In this document: piece after piece, positions 580-16,374 of the stretch
Layout: the number at the start of each line of letters is the position of its first letter
How positions within the stretch are numbered: position 1 is the stretch's first letter
Source: an uncultured Gammaproteobacteria bacterium
GTDB taxonomy: Bacteria; Patescibacteriota; Microgenomatia; UBA12405
Assembly (NCBI GenBank): GCA_964463925.1
Contig: CAYXDV010000004.1
Span: 13,080-77,079, forward strand
DNA: 64,000 bases
Direction: 5' to 3'
Notes under the pieces: model-generated
The model's database searches: none
What the model saw: the letters and a program-made list of their open reading frames with translations, nothing else
Told to the model about the DNA's origin: nothing
Program-made: the position numbers and the translations under genes

Positions 580-1845
580 ATGATTGATCTTAATTTGGTT
601 CGAACTCAACCCGAATTAGTAGCCAAGGCTTTGGCCTCCCGAAGTCTCGACACTTCACTTCTGGAAAAAGTAAAAGAAATTGACACAAATCGTAAAAATA
701 TTTTACTTCAAGTCGAAGAAAAACGAGCCGCACAAAATAAAATCAGCAGAGATATCAAAGGAAAGCCACTGCCAGAACAGATTCAACAAGCCAGTGAAAT
801 CAAAGAAGTGTTAAAACAGCTGGAATCGCAGCTAAAATTTGTAGATGAAGAATTAAAAGAAGCACTCGAAGGCATTCCCAATTTACCCGCAACAGATGTA
901 CCTGTGGGTCGCGATGATTCTGCAAATGTAGTAATCAAAACCGTTGGTACTCCAAGAGATTTTGGATTCAAACCAAAAGATCATGTAGAGTTGGGGAAAA
1001 TTTGCGATATCATTGATATCGACAAATCTGCCCAAATATCTGGTAGTCGTTTTGGTTTTTACAAAAATGAAGCAGCAATTTTAGAAATGACAGTTATGTG
1101 GTATGTTTTTACTAAACTTGCCAAAAAAGGTTTTCATGCCATGATCCCGCCATACATGATTAAGCACGACACTGAATGGAGGATGGGGTACGTAAGTAAC
1201 AAAAATTTAGCTGGTACCTATTACTACATGCCAGAAGATGATCTTAAATTTATAAGTAGTAGTGAACACAGCGTGGGTCCGTATCATATGGAAGAAATTT
1301 TGGCCCTAAAAGATTTACCTCTAAAATACGTAAATTTTTCACCCTGTTTTCGCCGAGAAGCAGGCACCTATGGTAAAGATATGAAAGGAATGCTTCGACT
1401 CCATTGTTTTAATAAAGTAGAGATGATAGTTTTTTGTCCACCTGATTTTGCCATCTCCGATGCTATGTGTCTTGAAATGCTTTCAAACGAAGAAGAAATG
1501 CTTCAAGATTTCAAACTACCATATCAAGTACTTCAAGTTTGCACTGGAGACATGCCCTTTCCAAATCGACGTCAATATGACATAAATACTTATTTTCCCG
1601 GACAAGGAGCCTATCGTGAAACCAGTTCTTGTAGTAATTGTAGTGATTATCAAACTAGGAGATTAAACACCAGAGTCAAAACTAGCATGGGCTTAGAATT
1701 TGTACATTTACTAAACGCAACTGGTATCACCGACCGTGTAGTTTTAGCTATTTTAGAAAATAATCAGCAAAAAGATGGTTCCATACTTATGCCAAAAGTT
1801 CTGCAACCTCTGCTCGGTTTTGATATCATAAAACCCAAGCTATGA
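580..1845 (+). CDS. serS: Seryl-tRNA synthetase
   Basis: N-terminus MIDLNLVRTQPELV, N-terminal coiled-coil arm, class II motif 2 FRREAG, length 421 aa; stop overlaps the secA start (ATGA). Confidence 0.9.
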   Translation: MIDLNLVRTQPELVAKALASRSLDTSLLEKVKEIDTNRKNILLQVEEKRAAQNKISRDIKGKPLPEQIQQASEIKEVLKQLESQLKFVDEELKEALEGIPNLPATDVPVGRDDSANVVIKTVGTPRDFGFKPKDHVELGKICDIIDIDKSAQISGSRFGFYKNEAAILEMTVMWYVFTKLAKKGFHAMIPPYMIKHDTEWRMGYVSNKNLAGTYYYMPEDDLKFISSSEHSVGPYHMEEILALKDLPLKYVNFSPCFRREAGTYGKDMKGMLRLHCFNKVEMIVFCPPDFAISDAMCLEMLSNEEEMLQDFKLPYQVLQVCTGDMPFPNRRQYDINTYFPGQGAYRETSSCSNCSDYQTRRLNTRVKTSMGLEFVHLLNATGITDRVVLAILENNQQKDGSILMPKVLQPLLGFDIIKPKL

Positions 1846-4526
1846 TTGCCTTTCTAAACCAATTTGTTGACCCAACCGCCAGACGGTTATCAGCCTCCAA
1901 TAAAATAGTTTCTAAAATTAATCAGCTAGAGACTCAAATAAAATCATTATCTGACAATGATTTGTACAAAAAAACAACCTATTTCAAAGATCAGTTATCT
2001 AAAGGCAAAACTCTAGATGATATTCTTCCAGAGGCTTTTGCTGTAGTTCGTGAGTCTATCTTTAGAACTCTTGGTGAGCGTGCATACGATGTCCAGCTTT
2101 TGGCGGCCATCACTTTACACCAAGGCGACATTGCCGAACAAAAAACAGGAGAAGGAAAAACACATTCGGTAATCTTTGCAGCCTATTTAAATGCCCTGCT
2201 CGGTCGCGGTGTCCACATTGTTACTCCAAATGATTACTTGAGTCAGGTTGGAGCTGGCTGGTATCCACGCGCCCTTCATAAATTGGGCCTAAAAACTGGT
2301 TGCATTATTCATGAAAAATCATTTGTTTTTGATCCAGACTATGAGGCGGAAGGTGAATCTTTTGATTTGCGACTCTCTCATTTGCATCCCATCTCACGTC
2401 AAGAGGCATACTCGTGTGATTTGACTTACGGCACCAATAACGAATTCGGCTTTGATTATTTACGAGATCATATGGTTAATGATAGTAATCAATTGGTCCA
2501 AAAAGATCATTATTTTGCTATCGTTGACGAGGTCGATTTCGTTCTAATTGATGAAGCTCGTACTCCATTAATTATCAGCTCTCCCGATAATCGTCCAATT
2601 GGCAAATACGAAGACTATGCAGCTCTGGTTGAGCAGTTACAGCCAACGGACTATTCTATTGACGAGAAAACTAGATCGGCAAATTTGTCTGAATACGGTA
2701 TTCGAAAAATAGAAAGACTATTGAAAATCGGGAATCTGTATGAAGAATCATTCGAGACAATTCACTATATTGAAAACGCAATCAAAGCCAAGGCTCTGTT
2801 TAAAAAAGACAAAGATTACGTAGTTAAAGATGGTCAAATAATTATTGTTGATGAATTTACAGGACGCCTTATGAATGGTAGGCGCTGGTCAGATGGCTTA
2901 CATCAGGCTGTTGAGGCAAAAGAAGGAGTTGTTATACAGCAAGAATCACGCACTTGGGCAACTATCACCTTTCAGAATTATTTCCGCTTATATGAAAAAT
3001 TAGCTGGAATGACAGGGACTGCCGCTACTGAGTCTGAAGAATTTCGTAAAATCTACGATCTAGAAGTTGTTCCCATACCTACTCATAGGCCAACAAAACG
3101 CAAAGATACTAACGATTTGATTTTTAAAACTCAACGTGCCAAATATGCGGCTATTGCTAACGAGGTGGAAAAATTGCATGCCACTGGCCAACCAGTTTTG
3201 ATTGGAACCACTTCAGTAGAGAAAAATCAAATAGTTTCATCTCTATTGGCAAAGAAAAAAATTTCTCACCAGGTTTTGAATGCAAAAAATCATATGGCCG
3301 AAGCCGAGATAATTAGCAAAGCTGGTACTAAAGGGACGGTAACCGTAGCCACTAATATGGCCGGAAGGGGAGTTGATATCATCCTTGGTGGCCCGCGTCC
3401 CGAAGACAAAGAGAACAAAAAAATCCAAGAAGATTGGCAAAAAAAACATGATGATGTTGTCAATCTTGGTGGTTTATGTGTAATAGGAACCGAACGTCAT
3501 GAATCGCGTCGTATTGACAATCAGTTGCGAGGACGCGCAGGTCGTCAGGGAGACCCTGGATATTCACAATTTTACGTAGCACTTGACGATGATCTTATGA
3601 GAATTTTTGGAGGCGAAAAAATTGCCGGGGTGATGACTCGCATGAATATGCCTGAAGACGAAGCTATTTCTCACCCCATGGTCAGCAAGATTTTAGAACA
3701 AACCCAAATAAAAGTTGAGGGTTTCCATTTTGATACTAGAAAAAACGTCGTTGAATACGACGATGTGGTCAATAAACAACGTCAAATTATCTATCAAATA
3801 CGGGATAGTGTAGTCAAAACCACCATTAAAAATCCGACAGAAGTAACTCAACAAATTTTTAAATATTTACAAAAACAGCTTGATTTTATTTTTACTTCAA
3901 ATACAGATACTGCTAGTGGTTCTATAGACTTTTCTAAAGTAATTCCAGAATTTGCTGAAATTCTACCTCTTGACGATGCTAATCGTGGTCAGCTAACCAA
4001 GAAAGTAGAGTCAGAACTCGATCCCAAAACATACATGATGGGATTACTACAGAATGCCCTTCAGGAAAGAGAGAAAATATTCGGCCCTGAATTAAACTTA
4101 GAAATGGGACGTTATTGCATACTGTCTACTCTTGATCCATTGTGGGTTGATCACCTGACTGCCCTAGATGATCTGCGAAATGGCGTTCGTCTGCGCGGCT
4201 ATGCCCAAAAAGACCCCTTGGTTGAATACCGTAAAGAAGGTTTTGAAATGTTTCAAGCTCTGATGCATCAATTTGAATACAACGTTTGTCGAAAAATATT
4301 CCGCCTTCAACCAGTGCCTGCAAATCAAGTCCAGTCAAATGTTTCTCTTTCAGAGGGTAGGAGGGAAGAGCCAAACCCTGCCTCCAGCAGTCAAGATCTG
4401 CCGGTCTTACCAAAACAGGAGCAAGCCAAAACAGCTCATCCCAATCTTGGACGCAATGATGTTTGTTGGTGTGGATCTGGCAAAAAATACAAAAAATGCC
4501 ACCTAAACAGTGATGCTAACTCATAA
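1842..4526 (+). CDS. secA: Preprotein translocase ATPase SecA
   Basis: 894 aa; Walker A GEGKTHS, DEAD-like DEVDFVLIDEARTPLIIS, C-terminal zinc-binding tail CWCGSGKKYKKCH. Confidence 0.95.
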   Translation: MIAFLNQFVDPTARRLSASNKIVSKINQLETQIKSLSDNDLYKKTTYFKDQLSKGKTLDDILPEAFAVVRESIFRTLGERAYDVQLLAAITLHQGDIAEQKTGEGKTHSVIFAAYLNALLGRGVHIVTPNDYLSQVGAGWYPRALHKLGLKTGCIIHEKSFVFDPDYEAEGESFDLRLSHLHPISRQEAYSCDLTYGTNNEFGFDYLRDHMVNDSNQLVQKDHYFAIVDEVDFVLIDEARTPLIISSPDNRPIGKYEDYAALVEQLQPTDYSIDEKTRSANLSEYGIRKIERLLKIGNLYEESFETIHYIENAIKAKALFKKDKDYVVKDGQIIIVDEFTGRLMNGRRWSDGLHQAVEAKEGVVIQQESRTWATITFQNYFRLYEKLAGMTGTAATESEEFRKIYDLEVVPIPTHRPTKRKDTNDLIFKTQRAKYAAIANEVEKLHATGQPVLIGTTSVEKNQIVSSLLAKKKISHQVLNAKNHMAEAEIISKAGTKGTVTVATNMAGRGVDIILGGPRPEDKENKKIQEDWQKKHDDVVNLGGLCVIGTERHESRRIDNQLRGRAGRQGDPGYSQFYVALDDDLMRIFGGEKIAGVMTRMNMPEDEAISHPMVSKILEQTQIKVEGFHFDTRKNVVEYDDVVNKQRQIIYQIRDSVVKTTIKNPTEVTQQIFKYLQKQLDFIFTSNTDTASGSIDFSKVIPEFAEILPLDDANRGQLTKKVESELDPKTYMMGLLQNALQEREKIFGPELNLEMGRYCILSTLDPLWVDHLTALDDLRNGVRLRGYAQKDPLVEYRKEGFEMFQALMHQFEYNVCRKIFRLQPVPANQVQSNVSLSEGRREEPNPASSSQDLPVLPKQEQAKTAHPNLGRNDVCWCGSGKKYKKCHLNSDANS

Positions 4527-5118
4527 TAACGAAAATATTAAAGGATGTGTAGAAATATTTGGTACAATTCTGTTTGTTATGATTTTCATTCCTCTTAACA
4601 AATTTATTGTTAGTCACTTTTTTCCCTATAATAGTAAAAAAAATAATGACCCTGTCTCAAGTAAAACAAACCAGTATAACAAAAAAGGTAAGATCTTCTC
4701 CTTTGTAGCATTAAGATATTATGCAATCATATTAAATAGAACTTTTCGCATATTTGTTACAGATAAATATATTTTGGGTGCAAAGGTAGGAAATTTACTA
4801 GCTTCTCCGGGAGGAATTTTAGAAAACATAGAATCAGAGTGGCAAGATAAGGAGTTCTATGTAAACCATCAGCTTGATAACAAATATTCTAAAATTAATT
4901 CAGAATCACCTAAATTTTTAGCCAGTGACAGAGCCAATTTTAGAATATTAAAGTCAGATATTAAGGATGTGAAGTATTTTCCAACGAAATGGGGAATGGG
5001 AAATGTACCTTATTCAGGGCGGATAATAATTACAACAAAAAATCAAAAAAATATTGAATTGATTCTGCTGGGAAGCCAAAACTATAAAAGTATATTAAAG
5101 ATATTATCTGAGAATTAA
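4510..5118 (+). CDS. Hypothetical protein with an N-terminal TM helix (AT-rich, Lys/Asn-rich ORF)
   Basis: ORF only; hydrophobic segment VEIFGTILFVMIFIPL; no recognisable motifs; true start uncertain. Confidence 0.3.
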   Translation: MMLTHNNENIKGCVEIFGTILFVMIFIPLNKFIVSHFFPYNSKKNNDPVSSKTNQYNKKGKIFSFVALRYYAIILNRTFRIFVTDKYILGAKVGNLLASPGGILENIESEWQDKEFYVNHQLDNKYSKINSESPKFLASDRANFRILKSDIKDVKYFPTKWGMGNVPYSGRIIITTKNQKNIELILLGSQNYKSILKILSEN

Positions 5119-5166
5119 TTTACATAATTCCTCTATTTAGTAAGTGAGTTAAAATATAATTAACCA

Positions 5167-5553
5167 ATGTCTACAATTTTTGAGCAAATTATTTCAGGAC
5201 AAATTCCTTGCTACAAAGTTACAGAAAATGCCGACTTTTTCGCTTTTTTAGACATACACCCTCGTTCACCTGGCCATACTTTGGTAATTCCCAAAAACTC
5301 CTACCGCTGGGTTTGGGATGTGCCTAATTTTGGTGATTATTTGGAATTTTGCAAAAAAATCTCAATTGCTATCCAGTTGGCTTTAAAACCAGACTTAGTT
5401 TCGCTTTATACTTACGGTACCGATGTCCCGCATGCACACGTTCATCTGATACCAAAGTATTCTAGCGATACCGAACATACCCAAAAAGACATTTTCCTTT
5501 CATCCAAAGAATTTCAGCAAATTGCAAGTAGTATTTCAAAAATGCTAAAGTAA
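5167..5553 (+). CDS. HIT-family (histidine triad) nucleotide hydrolase, HinT-like
   Basis: HIT motif HAHVHLIP; N-terminus IISGQIPCYKVTENADFFAFLDIHPRSPGHTLVIPK is typical of HinT. Confidence 0.85.
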   Translation: MSTIFEQIISGQIPCYKVTENADFFAFLDIHPRSPGHTLVIPKNSYRWVWDVPNFGDYLEFCKKISIAIQLALKPDLVSLYTYGTDVPHAHVHLIPKYSSDTEHTQKDIFLSSKEFQQIASSISKMLK

Positions 5554-5556
5554 CTT

Positions 5557-5850
5557 ATGGATCCCGCTGAACAGCAACTACTACAAGATATTTTGCAAGA
5601 GCTGAAAAAAATAAATAATACAAAAAATAGCTACACCAGAAGTTTTTTAACAGGAATTTTACAAGCACTAGGATCTTTTTTGGGAACAGCAGTTTTTGCG
5701 GTAGCTATGGTTTATATCTTTAGTCAATTCAGTTCATATCTCATAAAACCAACAAGCCATTTTATAGAAAATGTTTTTAAACAGGTCAATTGGAGTCTTA
5801 TAGTTCCTGCCCCAAAACTTGATTTAAAAAATATTGACCTGCAATTCTAA
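5557..5850 (+). CDS. Small membrane protein, unknown function
   Basis: 97 aa ORF with one or two TM helices; its 3' end overlaps convergent nadK by 4 nt. Confidence 0.4.
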   Translation: MDPAEQQLLQDILQELKKINNTKNSYTRSFLTGILQALGSFLGTAVFAVAMVYIFSQFSSYLIKPTSHFIENVFKQVNWSLIVPAPKLDLKNIDLQF

Positions 5851-6533
5851 TTTTTTGGAGCCAAAATAATTGCTTTTTGTTCGGACTTTTTAATCTCAAT
5901 CTCTTCATTTTCTAAAAGTTCTATGATTTTTGGTTCGTTATCCCAGGCAAGCACTGCTGGCCCACGTAGCAATTTAAGAACAATTTTTGAATCCTCCTGC
6001 AAAACAAGTTCTTTTTTTGAGCTATTGTGTATATTATTTAAAGCCACCCCGATTCCAATTTTAAAAGACAATCGGGTTATAGAATAAAAATAACCTGTCG
6101 AACCAAAAGGGGATGAGCACACAAGTCCGTCACCTATAAAAACCTTTTCTCCGAAACAGTCAATTTGAAATCTTATGGCAGAATTTGGTCTTGCGTGAGC
6201 AATTACTATGTCATTAAAGGCCAATATTTTCTTATCTTTATATCTCGCTTCTAATTTAAGCATTTCCCTTGACATAAGCTTTTTACTGCTAAGCAATTCC
6301 AAAAGCTCTTCGTTGCTGTTGATGTAACAAAGGTGACAATTTTCACTATTTTTTAGCGGAAGCTTTGGAATTCCAGGATAGACAGCTTCCGACCCTATCA
6401 AAGTTCCATCACCTCCAAAAGTAACTACTACATCCGGATTTGTTTTAACTATTTCCAAGCCTTTGTATTTCGACACCAGATCAGCTAGATCCATTGGCAC
6501 TGTTCCGTTTCGACCATATAGTAGAACTTTCAT
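5847..6533 (-). CDS. nadK: NAD(+) kinase
   Basis: GGDGT motif (VVVTFGGDGTLIG); NDIVI; C-terminal GDGLVCSSPFGSTGY substrate-binding region. Confidence 0.85.
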   Translation of the reverse strand: MKVLLYGRNGTVPMDLADLVSKYKGLEIVKTNPDVVVTFGGDGTLIGSEAVYPGIPKLPLKNSENCHLCYINSNEELLELLSSKKLMSREMLKLEARYKDKKILAFNDIVIAHARPNSAIRFQIDCFGEKVFIGDGLVCSSPFGSTGYFYSITRLSFKIGIGVALNNIHNSSKKELVLQEDSKIVLKLLRGPAVLAWDNEPKIIELLENEEIEIKKSEQKAIILAPKN

Positions 6534-6563
6534 CTTACAATCATAACACTACATTCAAGATAG

Positions 6564-8414
6564 TTATCTCCTAGCCTTATCTCTTTCTACTTTTGTCAGC
6601 ATCTTTTTTCTAAGTCTGACATTTTTGGTAGTTACATCAACCAGTTCATCATTCTCAATAAAATCCAAAGCTTCTTCGATTGAATATTTTACCGCGGGAG
6701 GCAGAATAATATTGTCATCATTTCCAGCAGATCGCATATTAGTAAGCTGTTTACCTTTGCATATGTTCATTTCCAAATCTCCTTCTACCGGTCTTACACC
6801 AACCACTTGCCCTTCATATACTTCTTCGTTTGGATTAATAAACAAAATTCCTCTAGCCGTGGCTATATCCAAACCATAAGACAATGCTTTTCCGGTTTCT
6901 GAGGCAATAATTACTCCTGGTCTATTATTACCAGTCTCCTCAACTTTTGGCTCGAATCCCAAAAACAAATAATTTAGAGAAACCATTCCTCGGGTTTGAG
7001 TCATCAATACTGATCGCAAACCTAGCGCATTCCTTTCGCTAATTTTATATACCATTTTGGCATTACCATTTTCACTTATCATGTCAAGCATTTTGGCCTT
7101 TCGCTTTCCGAGTTCAGCGGTTATTACTCCAACATATTCATCTCCAGTAAGTACAGTAAGCTCATTAAACGGTTCGCATACTTGCCCATTAATGGTCTTT
7201 AAAATTACTTCAGGCTTCCCAACCTCCATTGCGTAGCCCTCACGCCTTAGATTTTCAATAAGAATTGCTAAATGTAATTCTCCGCGACCAGACACTATTG
7301 TACGAATACTATCTTCTGGATCTTCAGCCACACGAAGCCCCAAATCAGTTTCAGCAGCTTCATATAATCTGCTTTTTAGCTCTCTGCTAGTCAAAAATTG
7401 TGCTTCTTCCTTTGCAAATTTACCAGTATTTGGACCAAAACTAGCTTTCAATGTTGGTTCAGTTATAAAAATTGTTGGCAAAGCTGTGGTTACTTGGCTA
7501 CTACACACCGTCTGTCCAATTTTCATTTCGCCAACACCAGCAACATACACCACTTCTCCACTACTTGCTTCTTCACACTCAATTTTGTTGATACCTTCGT
7601 TAATATACATCCGCTCAACTCTAAATTGTCCAACTTTTTTACTTTCAGAATCAAGCAAAACTACCGAATCGTTTTTTTTAAGACTGCCGCTATATATTCG
7701 ACCAACGGCCAATTTACCCAAATATGGATTTTTTTCAAAAGCAGAAACCAACATACTAAAAGGCTTATCAGTGTTTTTAGCCGAACTTGGTACTGTTTTT
7801 AGTATTGCCTCAAAAAGAGGAGTGGTGTCGCCTGGCTGAGAAAAATCATCAACCAATGTATTCCAGGTTTTACCATCTCGACCAATGGCATAAACTACGG
7901 GAAAGTTTAATACATCATCATTGGTAGCCAATGACAAAAAAAGTTCCTCACAATCAGCTAAAACTCTTTGTGCCTGGGCATCTTTCCTATCAATTTTGTT
8001 TATGACTAGTATGATTTTGAGCCCAGCATCAAGTGCCTTTTTGAGCACAAATTTAGTTTGTGACAACGGACCCTCAGCTGCATCAACTATTAGCAAGGCA
8101 CCATCAGCCATATTCAAAACTCTTTCTACTTCTCCTCCAAAATCAGCATGTCCCGGAGTGTCAATAATATTAATCTTTACATCTCCAAAAAAGACAGAAG
8201 TATTTTTTGACAAAATAGTTATCCCTTTTTCACGCTCCAAATCATTACTATCCATGATTCTATCTTTACTCATTTCCGCTTGATTATCGCGAAAACTATG
8301 AGTTTGTTTTAGCATTGCATCGACTAGGGTAGTTTTCCCATGATCAACATGAGCGATTACTGCTACATTTCGAATGTCCGAATATTTGCGCATAAGCTTT
8401 CCATTATACAACAA
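6564..8414 (-). CDS. typA: Translational GTPase TypA/BipA
   Basis: N-terminus IRNVAVIAHVDHGKTTLVDAML, G-domain motifs DTPGHADF and NKID, 616 aa EF-G-like architecture. Confidence 0.95.
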   Translation of the reverse strand: MLYNGKLMRKYSDIRNVAVIAHVDHGKTTLVDAMLKQTHSFRDNQAEMSKDRIMDSNDLEREKGITILSKNTSVFFGDVKINIIDTPGHADFGGEVERVLNMADGALLIVDAAEGPLSQTKFVLKKALDAGLKIILVINKIDRKDAQAQRVLADCEELFLSLATNDDVLNFPVVYAIGRDGKTWNTLVDDFSQPGDTTPLFEAILKTVPSSAKNTDKPFSMLVSAFEKNPYLGKLAVGRIYSGSLKKNDSVVLLDSESKKVGQFRVERMYINEGINKIECEEASSGEVVYVAGVGEMKIGQTVCSSQVTTALPTIFITEPTLKASFGPNTGKFAKEEAQFLTSRELKSRLYEAAETDLGLRVAEDPEDSIRTIVSGRGELHLAILIENLRREGYAMEVGKPEVILKTINGQVCEPFNELTVLTGDEYVGVITAELGKRKAKMLDMISENGNAKMVYKISERNALGLRSVLMTQTRGMVSLNYLFLGFEPKVEETGNNRPGVIIASETGKALSYGLDIATARGILFINPNEEVYEGQVVGVRPVEGDLEMNICKGKQLTNMRSAGNDDNIILPPAVKYSIEEALDFIENDELVDVTTKNVRLRKKMLTKVERDKARR

Positions 8415-8438
8415 AATACAAGTTCCCCATATATCTAG

Positions 8439-8813
8439 TTAAGAATATATTTTATTTCTTGGCCCGTTGTATTCAACAAATTTCCCAGAACCATCATAAA
8501 TAAAAACACCAGATTTTAATTTTGGCCAGTTCGGATTATATACATCACTCTTTTGAGTTTTTTGTGATAAGTTATTAAGCTGACGAGTTATCCCATCACC
8601 TGGCTTTGCACCAGATGTGAGTGCCGCCCTCTGTCGTCTAAATTCTTCTCGGCGTATTATTTCATCATCTGTCATAGGATTGAAACTACGCGAATTTCGG
8701 CGTTCCCACCTTTTTCTCTCTCGTTTATTTCCCATTGCCAATTGTAAAATACTTTTTTTAAAAAACAATCTACTTATATCAAAAATGTTAAAATAAACCA
8801 ATGTTGTTTCCAT
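8439..8813 (-). CDS. Hypothetical basic protein upstream of typA (probable true start about 8735, MGNKRERKRW...)
   Basis: ORF only; Arg/Lys-rich N-terminus; no recognisable motifs; the longest ORF would overlap the divergent gene start. Confidence 0.3.
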   Translation of the reverse strand: METTLVYFNIFDISRLFFKKSILQLAMGNKRERKRWERRNSRSFNPMTDDEIIRREEFRRQRAALTSGAKPGDGITRQLNNLSQKTQKSDVYNPNWPKLKSGVFIYDGSGKFVEYNGPRNKIYS

Positions 8814-9409
8814 TAATTCTCCCTTTCACTCTACCTTCAAACACCATTCAAACAGCTTTTGTCGAACAAGCTCCTGAACGTAATTGGGATCAGCCGTGGC
8901 AAGATGCTTGCGAAGAAGCAGGTTTACTCACTGCCATTTACTACAAACAAAACCAAAAACCAAACACCAAAAAAATTGTTGCCGACCTAAAAGATATTTT
9001 TACTTACGAAACCAATCAGAGGTGGGGTCACGACATTCCATTATCTAAATTAAGTCAAATTGCTCAAAAAAAATTTGGTTATAAAACAAAAATTATCGAA
9101 AATCCGACACTTGAGGATCTGAAATCTCAAATTGATCAAAAACGGCCAATTATTGTTCCAGCAAACGGCAAAACTTTATATAAAGAAAATAAAAACTTTA
9201 ACTCTGGCGGACCTTATTATCATAATATTGTAATATTGGGCTATGATAAGGCAAAAAAACAGTTTATAGTTCACGATGTTGGTACCAAAAAAGGTGCCTT
9301 TTTTAGATACTCTTTTGATTTACTTCTTTCTGCCATTCATGATCTGCCCACTACTGACAAAAAGGAAGATATCCAAACTGGTGCCAAAAGGGTCATGGTA
9401 TTGCTATAA
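8801..9409 (+). CDS. Peptidase C39-like (papain-fold) domain protein
   Basis: NWDQPWQDACEEAGLLTAIYY (Q...C...A..YY like the Peptidase_C39_2 catalytic Cys region) and RPIIVPA...YHNIVILGYD...FIVHDVG (His region). Confidence 0.45.
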   Translation: MLFPLILPFTLPSNTIQTAFVEQAPERNWDQPWQDACEEAGLLTAIYYKQNQKPNTKKIVADLKDIFTYETNQRWGHDIPLSKLSQIAQKKFGYKTKIIENPTLEDLKSQIDQKRPIIVPANGKTLYKENKNFNSGGPYYHNIVILGYDKAKKQFIVHDVGTKKGAFFRYSFDLLLSAIHDLPTTDKKEDIQTGAKRVMVLL

Positions 9410-9417
9410 TTGTAAAT

Positions 9418-10029
9418 ATGAAAAAGTACATGCCCATTCTATTGGCCTTTACTATTACCGGTTGTAGCCTAACCGGACCACTTTCAACTCAAAATCAACC
9501 AACTTCTATGCCAACAAATTCACAAACAAACCCCACAACAATTATTAGCAATGCGCCAACTTCTCCAAGCTCCTTGGATTCCAATTCTGAATCAAATCAA
9601 ACTATTGTCAGTCTAAGCACCAAAGATGGAGATATTTTGCTAAAACTATACTCAGACGAATCTCCCAGCACAGTAAAGAATTTCCTGTCTAAGGCCAACT
9701 CTGGTTTTTACAAGAATTTAACCTTTCACCGAGTCGAGCCAGGTTTTGTGGTTCAGGGCGGTGATCCACTCGGAAATGGAACCGGTGGCGGAAACCAAAA
9801 GTCTGAAATCAACAACATACCTTTTAAAAGAGGTAGTTTGGGTTTAGCCAGAGCCAACAATATTGAAATTAGTAATGACAGCCAATTTTTCGTTTGTCTT
9901 GCAACTGAAACTTGCAAACATCTAACTAACCAATATGTCAATTTTGGGGAAGTGATTTCTGGAATGGATGTTGTAGACAAAATTCGCCAAGGTGACAAAA
10001 TCTTGGATTTGTCAGTCAATACCAAATAG
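9418..10029 (+). CDS. Cyclophilin-type peptidyl-prolyl cis-trans isomerase, lipoprotein
   Basis: Signal peptide with lipobox ITGC; S/T/N/P-rich linker of about 45 aa; cyclophilin core FHRVEPGFVVQGGDPLGNGTGG. Confidence 0.85.
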   Translation: MKKYMPILLAFTITGCSLTGPLSTQNQPTSMPTNSQTNPTTIISNAPTSPSSLDSNSESNQTIVSLSTKDGDILLKLYSDESPSTVKNFLSKANSGFYKNLTFHRVEPGFVVQGGDPLGNGTGGGNQKSEINNIPFKRGSLGLARANNIEISNDSQFFVCLATETCKHLTNQYVNFGEVISGMDVVDKIRQGDKILDLSVNTK

Positions 10030-10031
10030 CT

Positions 10032-10358
10032 ATGGCCTCTTTGGCTCGAATTCTTGTATTACTTTGCTTAATTTTTTTAGGCGTTCGCTATTTGACTCCG
10101 AAAAAGCAGCAGGATCTTAAAATAAAAATAGTACAATCCATTCCAAAAAACATAATCCAAGATAGCCCACCGCTGGTAATAAAATATTTAATATCACAAG
10201 TACCAGAAGAAAAACAATCTAAAATCGCTAGCCTATCTGCTGAAATTGCTAGTGCATCCACAAATTTTGACCCATGGAGTCAACAGAAAGTAAAGCAACT
10301 GAAATTAATGATATTAGACGAGATCTATAAATCTCTTTTGGAGAGAGTAAATAAATAA
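10032..10358 (+). CDS. Small membrane-anchored hypothetical protein
   Basis: N-terminal TM helix [12 protein letters not shown]; ORF only. Confidence 0.35.
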
Positions 10359-10359
10359 C

Positions 10360-11430
10360 ATGATCCAGGAGCTTCAGTCAAAACTGAAATTACTAAAATC
10401 AAAGTTAGAATTCGACAAATTAACTTCCGAAGAGTCAAGACTAGAGCAGCTTACGCAATCATCAGATTTTTGGCAAGACACATCTAGGGCCCAGCAGGTC
10501 TCCCAGCAGCTCAGCCATACCAGGTCTACTATCCAAATGCTAAATAATTTATCTACAGAATTAAACTCTTTGTATGAATTAGAAGAAATGCTCTTAAAAA
10601 CCCCAGATTCTCAGTTAACTCAGGAGTTAGATATTAGCACTGCAAAAGTGAATGCCGAGCTAGACAAACTGGAAATACAGGCATATTTGTCCGGACCCTA
10701 TGACAATAAAGATACTGTTTTTTCAATCCATTCTGGCCAAGGAGGTACTGAAGCAATGGACTGGGCAAGTATGTTGCAACGCATGTACATGCACTTTTTT
10801 GATCAAAAAAAATGGAAGTATGAAATCCTCGATATTAACGCAGGCGAAGAAGCTGGAATAAAGTCTATTACTCTAAAAGTAAATCATCCCTTTTCTTATG
10901 GCTATTTAAAGCATGAAGCGGGTGTGCACCGATTAGTGCGGCTTTCACCTTTTAATGCAAATAATTTACGTCAGACCAGCTTCGCTAAGGTCGAAGTTTT
11001 ACCTGTTCTCGATGAAATTACTGCTGTTTCAATCAATGAAGCCGATTTAGAGTTTTCAGCTTTTCGTTCTGGTGGACATGGCGGGCAAAATGTAAATAAA
11101 GTTTCCACAGCTGTTCGCTTGCTCCACAAGCCAACAGGTATTAGTGTCAGCTGTCAAACCCAACGTTCCCAAGAGCAAAATCGAGCTACGGCACTGCAGA
11201 TATTGTCTGCCAAACTTTGGCAGATTGAAGAGGAGAAAAGACATACAGAAACGAGTGGAATTAAAGGTGAGAATGTTCATGCTAGTTGGGGTCGACAGAT
11301 TAGATCCTATGTATTGCATCCATATAAATTGATAAAAGATCTTAGAACTGACTGTGAAACCAGCAATACAGATGACGTTTTAAACGGTAACTTAGATGAC
11401 TTTATCAATTCAGAGCTTAGAACCTTATGA
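10360..11430 (+). CDS. prfB: Peptide chain release factor 2
   Basis: GGQ motif ([11 protein letters not shown]) and the RF2-specific SPF motif (RLSPFNAN); the ORF is uninterrupted, with no +1 frameshift site. Confidence 0.9.
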
Positions 11431-12443
11431 TTAAAAAAATAGTTTTATTATCCTTATTATTAGTTTTCTTGTTAGGATACTTTTTTTATAAAAAGGCAGT
11501 ATTCTATACAGAATTATTTGGATATTCTCTTTCTGGGGCTGTTAATTTGCTAATTAAATCCAATTTGCTAGCAACAGGCATGGATCTTAAGTATTACCAC
11601 AAGCCCACAATACTAATCCTAGGTGTTGATGAACGTAATGACAAATTAGAGCACACTGAAGTAACCGACACCATAATGTTAGCCCAATTGAATCTACTAA
11701 AAAATACCATATCTGTAGTTTCCTTACCAAGAGACACCTGGGATGAAAAATTTAAGTTTAAACTAAATAGTTTTTATCCATATGCAATTAAAAACTACCC
11801 AAATGATTGGCAAATCTTTCTAAAAACCGAATTTGCCAGAGTAACTGGACAATCAATTGACAATATAATACTAATCAATACCCAAAGCTTTGATGAACTA
11901 GCCAGAATAATTGGCCCGGTATCCGTTGACTTGCCCTATTCTTTTACAGATACCCGCTATCCAAATCCAGCCCATATCCAAAATCCGAATTCAAATGCAC
12001 CAATATATAAAACAGTTTCTTTTTCAAAGGGTGCTAACCAAATTGATTCACAAAATGTATTAGAATTTGTTAGATCTCGCAAAAGCTCTGATAATCCAAA
12101 CGAAGGCGGTACCGATCTTGGCAGGATTGCAAGACAGCAACTACTACTTGATGCCTATCTTACCAAACTAAAATCAAAACCAAATGTAAAACTCTTTGCA
12201 TCTTTGTATCAGATATTCCACAGCCAAATAAAAACTGACATTACAGACGAAAGTGCTCTAATATATGCTCAGAGTTTTGAGAACCCAAAATTACTTCAGC
12301 TGAACAAAATTACCCTGCCCGTAAATACCAAAAATGCTGTTATCTCCGATCCTGGCTATCTGGTGGAAAATCAATCAGTTTTGCTCCCAACAAACAATAA
12401 TTTTCAGGCCCTAATTGATTTTCTTAAAACAACTCTCCCTTAG
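11427..12443 (+). CDS. LytR-CpsA-Psr (LCP) family cell-envelope polymer ligase
   Basis: N-terminal TM anchor, then [11 protein letters not shown]...[10 protein letters not shown]...[11 protein letters not shown], the hallmark of the LCP domain. Confidence 0.85.
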
Positions 12444-12460: not shown

Positions 12461-12937
12461 ATGACTAACTTGAATATACCCAATTTTAGCTCTACTTCGA
12501 CTTCTATTAAACCTCAATTTAATATAATTTTACTTTTTGCAGTCCTTCTCCTGGGGCTTGCCTCTGGGCTTTTGCTCGGCAAACTGCAACTAATGCCAAA
12601 ATCAAACATTTCTAATCCAAACTCTCCAACACCAATTGTTTCGAATGTCGAAGAAGTTACAAAAGATAGTCAAATCGAGGTAGGAAAAACATATGGCACA
12701 TCTAAAAGTACATCTAAAGACAAAGCACAGGGTGTTATCAAAACCGGCAATATAAATGGAGTAGGCACCCATATTTTAGAGAGGCAAGGTGGTCAGAGCC
12801 AATGGGCATCCCTAACTTCTTCTGCCCTTGATCTAGATCTATTCGTTGGACGCCAAGTAGAAGTTACTGGTCAAACCAATTCGGCAGCAAAAACAGGTTG
12901 GCTTTTGGATGTCGATCAGATCAAAGTTTTGCAATGA
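12461..12937 (+). CDS. Membrane-anchored hypothetical protein with an S/T/P-rich linker
   Basis: TM helix IILLFAVLLLGLASGLLLG; linker NISNPNSPTPIVSN; ORF only. Confidence 0.4.
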   Translation: MTNLNIPNFSSTSTSIKPQFNIILLFAVLLLGLASGLLLGKLQLMPKSNISNPNSPTPIVSNVEEVTKDSQIEVGKTYGTSKSTSKDKAQGVIKTGNINGVGTHILERQGGQSQWASLTSSALDLDLFVGRQVEVTGQTNSAAKTGWLLDVDQIKVLQ

Positions 12938-13635
12938 GGATAGTTTTTCAGGAGGTTACTAAAACATATGCATCTCATCCAGTTCTTTCTGGTATTAATT
13001 TTACGATAGAAAGCGGAGAATTTGTAGTTTTAGTAGGCCCATCAGGCGTTGGTAAAACCACAATTTTAAAGCTAATCTTGCACCAAATTAAGCCAAATTA
13101 TGGAAAGATACTTGTTGATGATACAAACCTAAGCCAAGCATCATCCAATTTCCTTGATAAATTTCGTAGAAATATTGGAGTTGTCTTTCAAGATTATCAG
13201 CTAATCGGAACAAAAACCCTATCTGAGAACATAATTCTAGCTCTTGATATTAACAATATTTCACCAGATCAGTATCAATCCAGATTGCAGGCAGTACTTT
13301 CCAGAACGGGATTGCTAAACAAAGCAAACAATTTTCCTTCACAACTGTCTGGTGGCGAACTCCAGCGCGCCAGCCTTGCCAGAGCTTTGGCTATCGGTCC
13401 AAAACTTTTGCTTGCCGATGAGCCAACTGGAAACTTAGATCCGGAAAATGCCCAAAATCTTGTCGAAATTCTTAAAGAGATCAACCAAAGCGGCACCACC
13501 ATTATTATGACTACCCACAATATGGATATCGTATCCATGCTAAAAACTAGGGTGATGGTTTTGCAAAACGGAAGTCTAGAAGATAAAACACTACCAGTTA
13601 TTAGTTCTAAAAAAATTAGTTCGAAAAAGAAATAA
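12934..13635 (+). CDS. ftsE: Cell-division ABC transporter ATP-binding protein FtsE
   Basis: MRIVFQEVTKTY..., Walker A GPSGVGKTT, signature LSGGELQRASLARAL, Walker B LLLADEPTGNLD; start chosen at the ATG overlapping the upstream stop (ATGA). Confidence 0.85.
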   Translation: MRIVFQEVTKTYASHPVLSGINFTIESGEFVVLVGPSGVGKTTILKLILHQIKPNYGKILVDDTNLSQASSNFLDKFRRNIGVVFQDYQLIGTKTLSENIILALDINNISPDQYQSRLQAVLSRTGLLNKANNFPSQLSGGELQRASLARALAIGPKLLLADEPTGNLDPENAQNLVEILKEINQSGTTIIMTTHNMDIVSMLKTRVMVLQNGSLEDKTLPVISSKKISSKKK

Positions 13636-13638
13636 TAT

Positions 13639-14511
13639 ATGTCGACATTTTCTACTACATGGCATCATTTGCGCCGCTACCCATACCATACTTTGGCAAC
13701 AACATTAGTGATGACAATAAACATTTTTACACTAAGTTGTTTTCTAATCGCTAGTCTTGGATTTAATCGCGTCATCAATTTTTTTGAGACAAAGCCAGAA
13801 ATTACCATATTTTTAAAAGATGGGCTAGATAAATCTACTCTTGACTCAGCACAGCGAGAAATTGCTGCTGTTCCTGGGGTAAAGGAAATACGTTATATCT
13901 CCAAAGAAAAGGCTCTTGAAAATTATCGAGAACAAAATAAAAACAAACCGATTTTGTTAGAAATGGTGACAGCCAACATTCTTCCTTCTTCTTTTGAAGT
14001 CACCGCCCAGGACCAAAATATCTTATCTCAAGTTGTCCAAAATTTTAGTGTAAAAAAAGATCTAGTCGATGAGATTATCTATCCAGAAGATGTAATCAGA
14101 CCTTTGCTTCAAATAACCAATACATCAAGACTAGCAGGGATTGCTTTAATTATTTATCTTACAATAACTACTGTTCTTTTGGTTGTTGGAACTATAGGGC
14201 AAAAAATAACCACTAATAAAGAAGAAATTAAGGTGAGCAGGCTGCTTGGTGCTTCCTCTTGGTATGTTACAAGTCCCTTTATTTTTGAAGGTTTGGTTTA
14301 CGGCTTGTTCACAGGAGTTTTAGGTTGGTCTTTGGCTCTCGCTATTTTCTTATATTTTAAAAATCAGCTAAATGTTTTCTTTTACCCGGTCACCTTTGTC
14401 GACACTCAAGTTTCTTCACTTGGTGTTCCTCTGGCCGCTACTTTGCTTTTTTCTGTTTTTTGGGGAGTAGTTTCAGCTAGCTTTGCAGCCAGAAGACAGA
14501 TAAAATTTTAA
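13639..14511 (+). CDS. ftsX: Cell-division permease-like protein FtsX
   Basis: 290 aa; TM1, then a large extracytoplasmic loop, then 3 C-terminal TM helices; immediately downstream of ftsE. Confidence 0.75.
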   Translation: MSTFSTTWHHLRRYPYHTLATTLVMTINIFTLSCFLIASLGFNRVINFFETKPEITIFLKDGLDKSTLDSAQREIAAVPGVKEIRYISKEKALENYREQNKNKPILLEMVTANILPSSFEVTAQDQNILSQVVQNFSVKKDLVDEIIYPEDVIRPLLQITNTSRLAGIALIIYLTITTVLLVVGTIGQKITTNKEEIKVSRLLGASSWYVTSPFIFEGLVYGLFTGVLGWSLALAIFLYFKNQLNVFFYPVTFVDTQVSSLGVPLAATLLFSVFWGVVSASFAARRQIKF

Positions 14512-14515
14512 AATC

Positions 14516-15700
14516 ATGTTTTTAATCTTCGTAATCTTCTTTCTTCTAATCAATCCAAATTTCACTCGTGCTCAAAGTTCCGCAGACGAACTTCAAGCAA
14601 AAATAGTTGAGTATACCGCCAAAATTACACAGTTACAAAAAGCCCAAGATACCTTAGAAAATCAGCTAGCTTATTTAAACTCTCAAACACAATTAACTCA
14701 GTTAAAAATAACCCAAACAGAAGTAACAATCGATATTCTGAAAAAGGATATTAGTAAATTATCAAACGATATAGACAATCTTGATTCATCTCTAAACCAA
14801 CTTTCCTCAGCTTATTTAACTCAGATTAGTCAGTTGTACAAGCTAGGTAAAACCAACAACTTGCTTACTATGGTTTTAAAAAGAAATTTCAATGACTTTT
14901 ATCGTGATTACAGATATCTAAGTGATATCCAGACTAATCATAAAAGTTTATTAGTTAATATGGAAACTACTCGCACAAACTTCGACAATCAAAAGCAAGA
15001 AAAGCAAGAAAAGCAGACACAGTTACAAAAACTCCAAACTGAGTTAGACAGAGAAAAACAAAGCCTGGCTAGTCAAACAAAAGCCAAAAATAATTTACTT
15101 GCTGATACAAAAAATAGCGAACAAACATATCAGCAAAAATTATCAGAGGCCAAAGCACAACTTGCTTCTTTTCGCCGATTTATTACCAGCCAAGGAGGTG
15201 CTTCTATCCTTAAAAACCAAACCAAATGTGATGACTGGGGTTGTTATTATAATCAGCGGGATTCACAGTGGGGCAATATGGGGATTGGGCTAAGCCCAGA
15301 TTCTATGGCTGAATACGGTTGTCTTATTACGTCCTCGGCCATGATAGCTACTCATTATGGGAAAAATATAAAACCTTCAGATATAGCTGGAAATTCGAGC
15401 AACTTTTTTGGTAGGACAGCCTATATGCAGCAAGGGAGCATTACTGCCAATGGTGCAAGTATTACCAGAACTCGAGTTGCCGCAACCTTGGCAAATATTA
15501 CCTCCGAAGTTAGTGCTGGCCGGCCTGTAATCGTTGGTGTAAGAATATCCGGCGGTGAGCATTTTGTGGTCATAAAAAAGAAAGAAGGGGATCAATTTAT
15601 TATGAACGACCCATTTGTGGAATCAGGCAAAGATATCGTCTTTACTACTAAATATTCCTTATCCTCAATCTACAAAGTTGATTATATTAAAGTAAATTAG
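14516..15700 (+). CDS. Secreted coiled-coil protein with a C-terminal C39-like cysteine peptidase domain (PcsB/EnvC-like candidate FtsEX-regulated hydrolase)
   Basis: Signal peptide; about 200 aa of coiled coil (QKQEKQEKQTQLQKLQTELDREKQ); C-terminus YNQRDSQWGN...YGCLITSSAMIATHYG...GRPVIVGV...GGEHFVVIKK...FIMNDPF, matching the Peptidase_C39_2-like Cys/His pattern. Confidence 0.65.
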   Translation: MFLIFVIFFLLINPNFTRAQSSADELQAKIVEYTAKITQLQKAQDTLENQLAYLNSQTQLTQLKITQTEVTIDILKKDISKLSNDIDNLDSSLNQLSSAYLTQISQLYKLGKTNNLLTMVLKRNFNDFYRDYRYLSDIQTNHKSLLVNMETTRTNFDNQKQEKQEKQTQLQKLQTELDREKQSLASQTKAKNNLLADTKNSEQTYQQKLSEAKAQLASFRRFITSQGGASILKNQTKCDDWGCYYNQRDSQWGNMGIGLSPDSMAEYGCLITSSAMIATHYGKNIKPSDIAGNSSNFFGRTAYMQQGSITANGASITRTRVAATLANITSEVSAGRPVIVGVRISGGEHFVVIKKKEGDQFIMNDPFVESGKDIVFTTKYSLSSIYKVDYIKVN

Positions 15701-15724: not shown

Positions 15725-15758
15725 CAAAAAACCGCCAGAGCTTCCTCTGGCGGCATCA
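15725..15758. terminator. Bidirectional intrinsic terminator between convergent genes
   Basis: aaaaaa-CCGCCAGA-gcttcc-TCTGGCGG hairpin (8-bp GC-rich stem); the A-run reads as a U-run on the minus strand. Confidence 0.6.
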
Positions 15759-15768
15759 TGTGTCTGTT

Positions 15769-16374
15769 TTAATATCCTCGGGCTAGTCTCCTTGCGGAGT
15801 AGCCAACAACGATCAAGCCAACAGATAACATAGTTTTTACAACAATATCAGCAGCTCCAGTATCTGGCACTGGTACTGCACCTACATATACAGCTGAAGT
15901 ATCAGAATCGCTAGCACCATTACTACAAACAGCTAAGCTAGCAGCAACTTTTTTGCTACTTACACAGTTCTCGCCAACTTTGGCTCTAACTGTATAAACT
16001 TTTTTCTCGCCAGCTTTTAGCTCATCAATTGTCCAACTCAGTTTATTATTGGTCATTTTATCTTGATTTGGGCCAAAAACTAGTGAAAAACACTGTGGCA
16101 AACTAAAATCTACTTTAACATTTGTCTGACTTACACTGTTTGGATTTTCAATAGATACCTGATATTCCACCAGATCACTCTTTTTGAAAATATACTGATT
16201 AATAGACAAATTATCAGAAAACTTATCAAGAGACATTGACCTTACTTGAACATCGTCAACTACACAGGAATTGTTACTACCCGTGCTGGTATATTGTGCC
16301 AAAACTACAGGTCTACTTAATAGTAGAACAGTCAAGGCAAGAGACAAGGTTATTAGTATATTTCTTTGTTTCAT
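15769..16374 (-). CDS. Secreted surface protein with a sortase-type C-terminal sorting signal (VPDTG + TM + RRLARGY)
   Basis: N-terminal signal peptide; C-terminus PVPDTGAADIVVKTMLSVGLIVVGYSARRLARGY has an LPXTG-like motif, a hydrophobic helix and a basic tail. Confidence 0.5.
   Translation of the reverse strand: MKQRNILITLSLALTVLLLSRPVVLAQYTSTGSNNSCVVDDVQVRSMSLDKFSDNLSINQYIFKKSDLVEYQVSIENPNSVSQTNVKVDFSLPQCFSLVFGPNQDKMTNNKLSWTIDELKAGEKKVYTVRAKVGENCVSSKKVAASLAVCSNGASDSDTSAVYVGAVPVPDTGAADIVVKTMLSVGLIVVGYSARRLARGY

Follow-up and report, generated by a model that had tools for sequence, protein, structure and literature searches.

The controlled cleavage of the cell wall by FtsEX is a well-studied principle of bacterial cell division, and the effectors involved so far are of the CHAP, NlpC/P60 or degenerate LytM type. 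In PcsB of Streptococcus pneumoniae (4CGK), a secreted protein of approximately 390–400 amino acids (aa), a coiled coil of about 200 aa is followed by a C-terminal Cys/His hydrolase of the papain superfamily, i.e., a CHAP domain. CwlO of Bacillus subtilis and RipC of Mycobacterium tuberculosis (8IDC) have two long antiparallel helices with a short FtsX-binding loop between them, a long Pro-rich linker and a C-terminal Cys/His enzyme of the NlpC/P60 type. EnvC, known from Escherichia coli, Vibrio cholerae and Pseudomonas aeruginosa (6TPI, 8HD0, 8TZL, 8I6O), ends in a degenerate and inactive LytM domain that activates amidases. Here, we analyze a locus on contig CAYXDV010000004.1, within a window of 64 kb (the whole stretch of DNA analyzed; G+C content 34.6%), in which four genes are closely packed on the + strand over positions 12461–15700. 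They encode a 158-aa membrane protein (TM158), FtsE, FtsX and a 394-aa protein with a coiled coil and a Peptidase_C39_2 domain. The latter is probably an FtsEX-activated septal cell-wall hydrolase, that is, a new catalytic version beside those with CHAP, NlpC/P60 and degenerate LytM domains.

The initial annotation of this DNA had counted the arrangement as a third variant of the FtsEX-regulated hydrolases. This count has to be corrected because the NlpC/P60 partners CwlO and RipC are already known, and the C39_2 protein would represent a fourth type of effector domain. No paper on a coiled-coil C39 or C39_2 partner of FtsEX was found in the literature searched, which was not complete.

The ftsEX–peptidase locus

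The ftsE gene (12934–13635) starts with an ATG that overlaps the stop codon of the TM158 gene as ATGA. It is separated by 3 nt from ftsX (13639–14511), which in turn lies 4 nt from the peptidase gene (14516–15700). The coordinates and the strand initially given for ftsE and ftsX, followed by a secreted protein with approximately 200 aa of coiled coil, are thus confirmed.

FtsE matches the Pfam ATP-binding cassette (ABC) family ABC_tran (E 1.9e-35), and the best NCBIfam model is TIGR02673 FtsE (E 4e-70), with 235.8 bits against a curated cut-off of 264.85; a score slightly below the cut-off is expected because the lineage is divergent. The Walker A (GPSGVGKT), signature (LSGGE) and Walker B (LLLADEPT) motifs are all intact in the translation. 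FtsX is a permease-like protein with four transmembrane (TM) helices and a large extracellular domain at residues ~45–165, in which PF18075 (FtsX_ECD) is matched over residues 54–137 (E 1e-16, 61.8 bits vs a cut-off of 23.5), next to the permease domain PF02687 (E 5e-9). The NCBIfam FtsX models are matched with E-values of 1e-51 and 4e-45, below their cut-offs (best 175.8 bits vs 255). Solved FtsX chains of P. aeruginosa, E. coli, V. cholerae and M. tuberculosis (8i6o, 8hd0, 8tzj, 8idb), obtained from complexes with EnvC and RipC, are matched with E-values from 1e-16 to 3e-10. Judged by these matches, positions 12934–14511 encode an FtsE/FtsX cell-division ABC pair, with both the ATPase and the permease showing the features of this class.

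A predicted C39_2 peptidase with invariant catalytic residues

The papain-like catalytic domain predicted for the 394-aa protein occupies residues 226–394 (15191–15700, stop codon included). It matches Pfam PF13529 (Peptidase_C39_2) over residues 244–366 with an E-value of 2.4e-10 and 41.6 bits against a cut-off of 24, and this family outscores the related PF03412 (Peptidase_C39; E 4e-6, 27.1 bits vs a gathering score of 22). No Pfam match to CHAP, NLPC_P60 or Peptidase_M23 (LytM) was obtained at E<0.1. Among the Foldseek matches of the modelled protein in the Protein Data Bank (PDB), the solved structures closest to the catalytic domain were the peptidase domain of ComA (3k8u), the C39-like protein of Bacillus anthracis (3erv), 5xe9 and 7n87. 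For this domain, the C39, C39_2 and C70 folds came first, and the papain-like peptidoglycan amidase effector Tse1/Tae1 was placed far lower. The initial description of the domain as C39_2-like rather than CHAP or LytM is supported by both approaches, and the motifs on which it was based, EYGCLITSSAMI, GGEHFVVIKK and MNDPF, are all present in the translation.

Four residues form the putative active site, i.e., the oxyanion Gln247 (15254–15256) and the catalytic Cys269 (15320–15322), His349 (15560–15562) and Asp365 (15608–15610), in the same arrangement as in the Peptidase_C39_2 protein 3ERV and in the C39 domains of ComA (3K8U) and PCAT1. They are invariant among 41 close homologues and in an alignment of 57 relatives (A2) with a mean column identity of only 24%, 49 of which match PF13529. 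Together with Gly268 and Pro366, they are also 100% conserved in 107 representatives of 350–520 aa clustered at 50% identity, so that the Cys/His dyad, whose loss would have spoken against the initial annotation, is retained in all of them. The third catalytic residue is an Asp here, whereas it is Glu360 in PcsB (PMC11627006). Based on the score and on the conserved Gln, Cys and His, we assign the protein to Peptidase_C39_2. The same sequence comparisons place it outside the PcsB equivalogs (C-terminal CHAP, score above cut-off), the EnvC equivalogs (C-terminal degenerate LytM/M23, score above cut-off) and the NlpC/P60 proteins of the CwlO/RipC type.

Since these residues are invariant in 107 diverse relatives, the 394-aa protein is predicted to be an enzyme and not a dead activator of the EnvC kind. 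A non-catalytic adaptor, in which a degenerate C39_2 scaffold would activate a separate amidase, would fit with a coiled coil that is closer by sequence to EnvC than to PcsB. However, the invariant Gln, Cys, His and Asp are the opposite of what is seen in the degenerate LytM domain of EnvC, and there is no amidase gene within the conserved operon. We consider this explanation highly improbable and reject it because of the invariance of the catalytic residues.

The domain also differs in its setting from the C39 domains that it resembles in fold. Those are cytoplasmic N-terminal modules of ABC exporters, while the domain described here is predicted to be extracellular, is fused to a coiled coil, and is linked to the non-transporting FtsEX. 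A bacteriocin-processing C39 domain was considered as an assignment and rejected, as the domain stands at the C-terminus of a protein with a predicted signal peptide, lacks a fusion to an ABC exporter and lies in an unlike context.

Against 1.84 billion representative sequences, the catalytic domain retrieved 838 clusters (50% identity) at E<=1e-3 and 163 at E<=1e-10, and most of the 838 comprise proteins of ~400 aa that have the domain in a C-terminal position. Annotation pipelines name such relatives 'C39 family peptidase' or, at JGI, 'peptidoglycan hydrolase CwlO-like protein'.

A second Peptidase_C39_2 protein is encoded 5 kb upstream (8801–9409, + strand; PF13529 E 5.6e-9). It is a stand-alone protein of 202 aa that shares 26% identity with the catalytic domain described above (BLASTP E 0.011), and it has a candidate Cys (ACEEAG), a candidate His (YYHNIV) and no clear signal peptide after its first ATG.

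A coiled coil of the EnvC/PcsB kind

The N-terminus of the peptidase (residues 1–22, 14516–14581) reads as a putative signal peptide or membrane anchor, with a hydrophobic core (FLIFVIFFLLI) followed by TRA/QS. Homologues likewise begin with MKK, a hydrophobic stretch and then an Ala, and the AlphaFold2 (AF2) model has a helix at residues 2–12 and a stretch of low predicted local distance difference test (pLDDT) score at 14–19. The protein is thus predicted to be exported by means of an N-terminal signal peptide or anchor.

The coiled coil proper comprises residues 23–225 (14582–15190). In the AF2 model, which was built on 41 homologues and has a pLDDT of 90.9, the N-terminal hydrophobic helix is followed by helices at residues 23–41, 47–113, 125–198 and 202–225, and a compact alpha/beta domain begins at approximately residue 240. 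The two long helices, 47–113 and 125–198, run antiparallel and form a hairpin with a tip of 11 residues (114–124), so that ~200 aa are folded as a two-helix hairpin. This geometry is close to that of RipC, in which alpha1 spans residues 45–110, the loop 110–128 and alpha2 starts at 128 (PMC11627006).

Comparisons of both structure and sequence point to EnvC as the best match of this region. The top whole-chain Foldseek matches in the PDB were EnvC 8tzl_E (E 1.7e-4), from the cryo-electron microscopy structure of V. cholerae FtsE/FtsX/EnvC, PcsB 4cgk_A, and EnvC with the FtsX periplasmic domain, 6tpi_A, with PcsB in third place; RipC (8idc_E) and Cg1735 (8aud) were found lower in the list. Among all PDB sequences, the family profile (A1) matched EnvC 8hd0_E with an E-value of 2.6e-10 and in a collinear manner (profile positions 23–232 to chain positions 29–238), followed by PcsB 4cgk (E 2.4e-4) and RipA (E 0.065), and unrelated coiled coils aligned over short stretches only. 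The NCBIfam EnvC model (NF008644) matched residues 23–224 with its positions 6–207 (E 1e-10), although at 41 bits against a cut-off of 270, and the PcsB model (NF046104) gave a weak 17.9 bits against a cut-off of 450. Pfam CC_PcsB was matched by 12 of the 57 family members. Judged by sequence and model, the 394-aa protein shares the traits of the EnvC/PcsB class, i.e., it is predicted to be exported and to have an N-terminal hairpin of ~200 aa homologous to that of EnvC and PcsB.

Conservation is unevenly distributed along this region. The last helix (186–225) and the linker, together residues 186–243, reach 1.8–2.0 bits, against 2.0 bits in the catalytic domain and 1.3–1.7 bits in the rest of the coiled coil, and the last helix before the globular domain takes the position of the 'restraining arm' of EnvC. 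Flanking the hairpin tip, Tyr108 is found in 91 of 107 sequences and Tyr134 in 82 of 107. Given what is known of EnvC, PcsB and RipC, residues 186–243 are a candidate autoinhibitory element, and the tip region with Tyr108 and Tyr134 is a candidate FtsX-binding element. The linker itself is short and conserved, whereas it is Ala-rich in PcsB and long and Pro-rich in CwlO and RipC.

A pair of cysteines, Cys238 and Cys243, precedes the catalytic domain (KCDDWGC, 15227–15244). It is near-invariant in the close clade and present in 38 of 107 broader relatives, and it may form a clade-specific disulfide that staples the linker.

Gene order in related loci

A scan of metagenomes yielded 80 loci with a homologue of the peptidase at 37–50% identity. 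In all 59 of those with at least 1 kb of upstream flank, ftsE and ftsX lie upstream on the same strand, and in 58 of them the two genes are directly adjacent to the peptidase gene, the remaining one (L063) having an insertion of ~1.8 kb. A gap threshold of 400 nt had flagged nine loci as 'NO ftsX upstream'. In eight of these, ftsX is still directly upstream, with ~400–600 nt between partial local alignments, and L063 alone is truly interrupted. Eight further loci agree with this picture. Six genome loci (L001–L006) with peptidases of 40–45% identity have the order prfB–TM158–ftsE–ftsX–peptidase wherever the flank exists, and the same order is found on the two contigs that carry the homologue P0086 (L008 and L009). 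The initial suggestion that the order ftsE–ftsX–peptidase is conserved is thereby borne out, and since it recurs in 59 of 59 informative metagenomic loci and in these eight, the adjacency is not due to chance. The peptidase gene directly follows ftsX here, whereas pcsB is presumably unlinked to ftsEX in the pneumococcus. The linkage of prfB, ftsE and ftsX is also found in streptococci.

Several of the metagenome-assembled genomes with a homologous operon (L001–L005 and L007) are deposited as uncultured Gammaproteobacteria or Pseudomonadales. These names look mislabelled because the other named homologues belong to Patescibacteria lineages only.

Proposed mechanism and alternative explanations

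Based on the domain architecture, the catalytic residues and the gene linkage, we propose that the TM158–ftsE–ftsX–peptidase operon encodes a divisome module for cell-wall hydrolysis, comparable in type to PcsB, CwlO and RipC, and we assign this whole chain of reasoning a probability of approximately 0.6. In the proposed scheme, the 394-aa protein would be exported, and the tip of the hairpin formed by helices 47–113 and 125–198 (residues ~108–134) would dock on the extracellular domains of an FtsX dimer. At rest, the C39_2 domain would lie inactive against the coiled coil, restrained probably by the conserved last helix and linker (186–243). Binding and hydrolysis of ATP by FtsE at the division site would be passed via FtsX to the coiled coil and free the site formed by Cys269, His349 and Asp365. 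The freed domain would then cut an amide bond in septal peptidoglycan, either in the stem peptide or in a cross-link, and the daughter cells would separate.

Considered separately, the two main parts of this scheme differ in strength. That the peptidase is coupled to FtsEX is, taken alone, very likely, and that peptidoglycan is its substrate is likely. Several observations nevertheless weigh against one or the other part, and they are considered here together with the explanations that they would favor.

The connection between peptidase and FtsX is one that we infer, and coiled coils are prone to sequence matches caused by compositional bias. Moreover, two distant relatives of the same architecture, P0256 (L012) and P0264 (L016), with catalytic domains 32% and 30% identical, are encoded after gltX and not by ftsEX, and the ftsEX order is thus lost in two of the three distant relatives with enough context. 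In a further locus (L014; contig CAYLIP010000017.1, positions 1168–10595, 72% G+C), ftsX is followed by a coiled-coil Peptidase_M23 protein resembling EnvC, and the C39-type paralogue P0188 (CC_PcsB plus C39-type domain) lies two genes upstream of ftsE–ftsX; a coiled-coil CHAP protein of 300 aa is encoded there on the opposite strand. These cases indicate that the linkage weakens with distance, that the architecture, as far as these sequences go, is older and broader than a strict adjacency to ftsX, and that paralogous coiled-coil hydrolases coexist in some genomes. In the 64-kb window, a tblastn search with the coiled-coil M23, coiled-coil CHAP and other proteins of L014 and L008 matched ftsX alone, and another FtsEX partner may exist beyond it.

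With its three types of coiled-coil hydrolases around ftsEX, L014 lends itself to the question of which paralogue is controlled by FtsEX.

The same relatives away from ftsEX, and the coiled-coil M23 protein that the ftsEX of L014 has next to it, would be expected if the hydrolase were merely co-transcribed with ftsEX and controlled in another way, with the adjacency reflecting a shared timing of expression and with TM158 or another factor as the actual regulator. A precedent would be RipA, whose coiled coil is of the same kind, and with which the family profile also aligns; RipA of Corynebacteriales is reported to be controlled by SteAB and to be independent of FtsEX (PMC9897464). On the other hand, direct adjacency in 58 of 59 loci that are only 37–50% identical, with gaps of 3–4 nt, is stronger than co-regulation needs, and the best structural matches of the coiled coil are EnvC chains from complexes with FtsX. 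No other coiled-coil hydrolase was seen within the 64-kb window. We therefore regard simple co-transcription as fairly improbable and retain the coupling to FtsEX as the preferred explanation.

The nature of the substrate is the second point to be weighed. The classical members of C39 are proteases with leader peptides of the Gly-Gly type as substrates, and the solved catalytic domains closest to that of the 394-aa protein in Foldseek are such leader-peptide proteases, i.e., the peptidase domain (PEP) of ComA (3k8u/5xe9) and PCAT1 (7n87). The gathering score of PF03412 is also passed (27.1 vs 22). In the classification of papain-like enzymes published in 2023, C39 and C39_2 belong to a papain/cathepsin cluster apart from the NlpC/P60–CHAP cluster, which also sets the catalytic fold described here apart from that of CwlO and RipC (PMC10318531). 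That classification describes C39_2 proteins as single-domain peptidases near transporters, and mentions neither coiled coils nor FtsEX, whereas the domain is fused here to a coiled coil of the EnvC/PcsB kind. In the literature searched, no C39_2 protein with a demonstrated peptidoglycan hydrolase activity was found, and a tblastn search of 50,697 phage records with the catalytic domain gave no match. Foldseek comparisons with viral models were marginal (a cyanophage 'lysozyme', E 2.8e-4, and a Siphoviridae amidase, E 0.01) and were treated as uninformative.

The nearest solved folds, the PF03412 score, the classification and the lack of a muralytic C39_2 protein in the literature searched would suit an FtsEX-coupled protease, in which the coiled coil docks on FtsX and the released C39_2 domain cuts a protein or peptide instead of peptidoglycan, with targets such as propeptides of the Gly-Gly type, surface or sortase-anchored proteins, or proteins of the division machinery. 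We consider this unlikely. Among the relatives of the catalytic domain, P0215 (450 aa) and P0262 (448 aa), both 34% identical, carry two LysM domains before the C39_2 domain (E 8e-25 and 5e-16), the sole hint at a peptidoglycan substrate that comes from domain fusions. Peptidase_C39_2 is also named as one of the catalytic domains that occur in endolysins of phages infecting Gram-positive hosts (PMC8223927), and all characterized coiled-coil partners of FtsEX act on peptidoglycan or on its amidases (PMC11627006). Taken together, the fusions, the endolysin listing and the action of the known partners on the wall point indirectly to peptidoglycan as the probable substrate. In addition, the conserved operon contains no candidate gene for a substrate with a Gly-Gly leader.

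The upstream membrane protein TM158

A conserved gene directly upstream of ftsE (12461–12937) had no place in the account given by the initial annotation. It encodes a bitopic membrane protein of 158 aa, TM158, in which a short tail on the cytoplasmic side is followed by a TM helix (residues 22–44), a variable linker and, at residues 77–156, a highly conserved C-terminal beta-barrel. In the AF2 model (pLDDT 81.9), the linker between the TM helix and the small barrel is disordered. No family was matched in Pfam or NCBIfam, and the 125 homologues retrieved, all named 'hypothetical', belong to Shapirobacteria, Woesebacteria and Patescibacteria, i.e., only to lineages of the Microgenomates type. 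The alignment of TM158 (A3) has 27 invariant columns, all but one in the C-terminal domain. Foldseek against the PDB gave weak matches resembling the oligonucleotide/oligosaccharide-binding (OB) fold, the best being the DUF3299 protein 4hsp (PA4066; E 0.013), which we take to be encoded next to an ABC transporter of the MacB/FtsX type.

In almost every related locus, the TM158 gene is located between prfB and ftsE; among the 59 metagenomic loci, almost all have TM158, and the majority have prfB. As its gene is translationally coupled to ftsE and occurs almost throughout the syntenic loci, TM158 may belong to the module as a fourth component. A bolder proposal, which we put forward only tentatively and hold to be doubtful as a whole, is that Microgenomates-type Patescibacteria possess a four-gene divisome hydrolase module. 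In such a module, FtsEX would drive a C39_2 peptidase, giving this family for the first time both a physiological role and an activity directed at peptidoglycan, and the lineage-specific OB-fold protein TM158 would be an added extracellular subunit or regulator without a counterpart in the PcsB, CwlO, RipC and EnvC systems.

Flanking genes

Upstream of the four genes, prfB (10360–11430, + strand), coding for release factor 2 (PCRF E 1.5e-51, RF-1 E 2.3e-36), is followed by a gene of the LytR-CpsA-Psr (LCP) family (LytR_cpsA_psr; 11427–12443, + strand) that overlaps the prfB stop codon; secA and serS are located farther upstream. Both prfB and the LCP gene had initially been taken as the operon context of the division genes. 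This applies to prfB, which precedes the module in most related loci. Among these loci, L019 alone has an LCP gene at this position, so that the gene has been inserted recently into the prfB–TM158–ftsEX string and is not a conserved part of it.

In the convergent gap between the peptidase gene and a DUF11 gene, a G+C-rich hairpin of 10 bp with a T-run (15731–15754, listed without a strand) was found, 31 nt past the peptidase stop codon at 15700. It was called as a terminator-like site on the minus strand, and it likely marks the end of the operon, for which it would have to act as a terminator on the + strand as well.

The convergent DUF11 protein (15769–16374, – strand) ends with VPVPDTGAAD, a hydrophobic stretch and RRLARGY. 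This tail looks like a sortase sorting signal of the LPXTG type, which would imply wall-anchored surface proteins in the host. A DUF11 gene is also found 3' of the peptidase gene in L019. Beyond it, an almost unbroken cluster of overlapping glycosyltransferase and polysaccharide genes extends over ~30 kb (16430–47439, + strand); its first genes, the only ones scanned, encode GT2, PMT_2-type and flippase-like polysaccharide-synthesis proteins. The division module is thus followed directly by what reads as a large cluster for envelope glycans.

Implications

The general concept of FtsEX as a regulator of wall cleavage is unchanged by a version with a C39_2 domain, even one as widespread as the 838 clusters suggest. 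If the proposed function is true, the coiled-coil 'handle' would be a portable regulatory module, combined in this case with a papain-like domain acquired from another branch of the superfamily. The poorly understood Peptidase_C39_2 family would gain a concrete and testable function, and for the Patescibacteria, which have small genomes and are for the most part uncultured, the system would be one of the few through which the mechanism of cell division could be approached.

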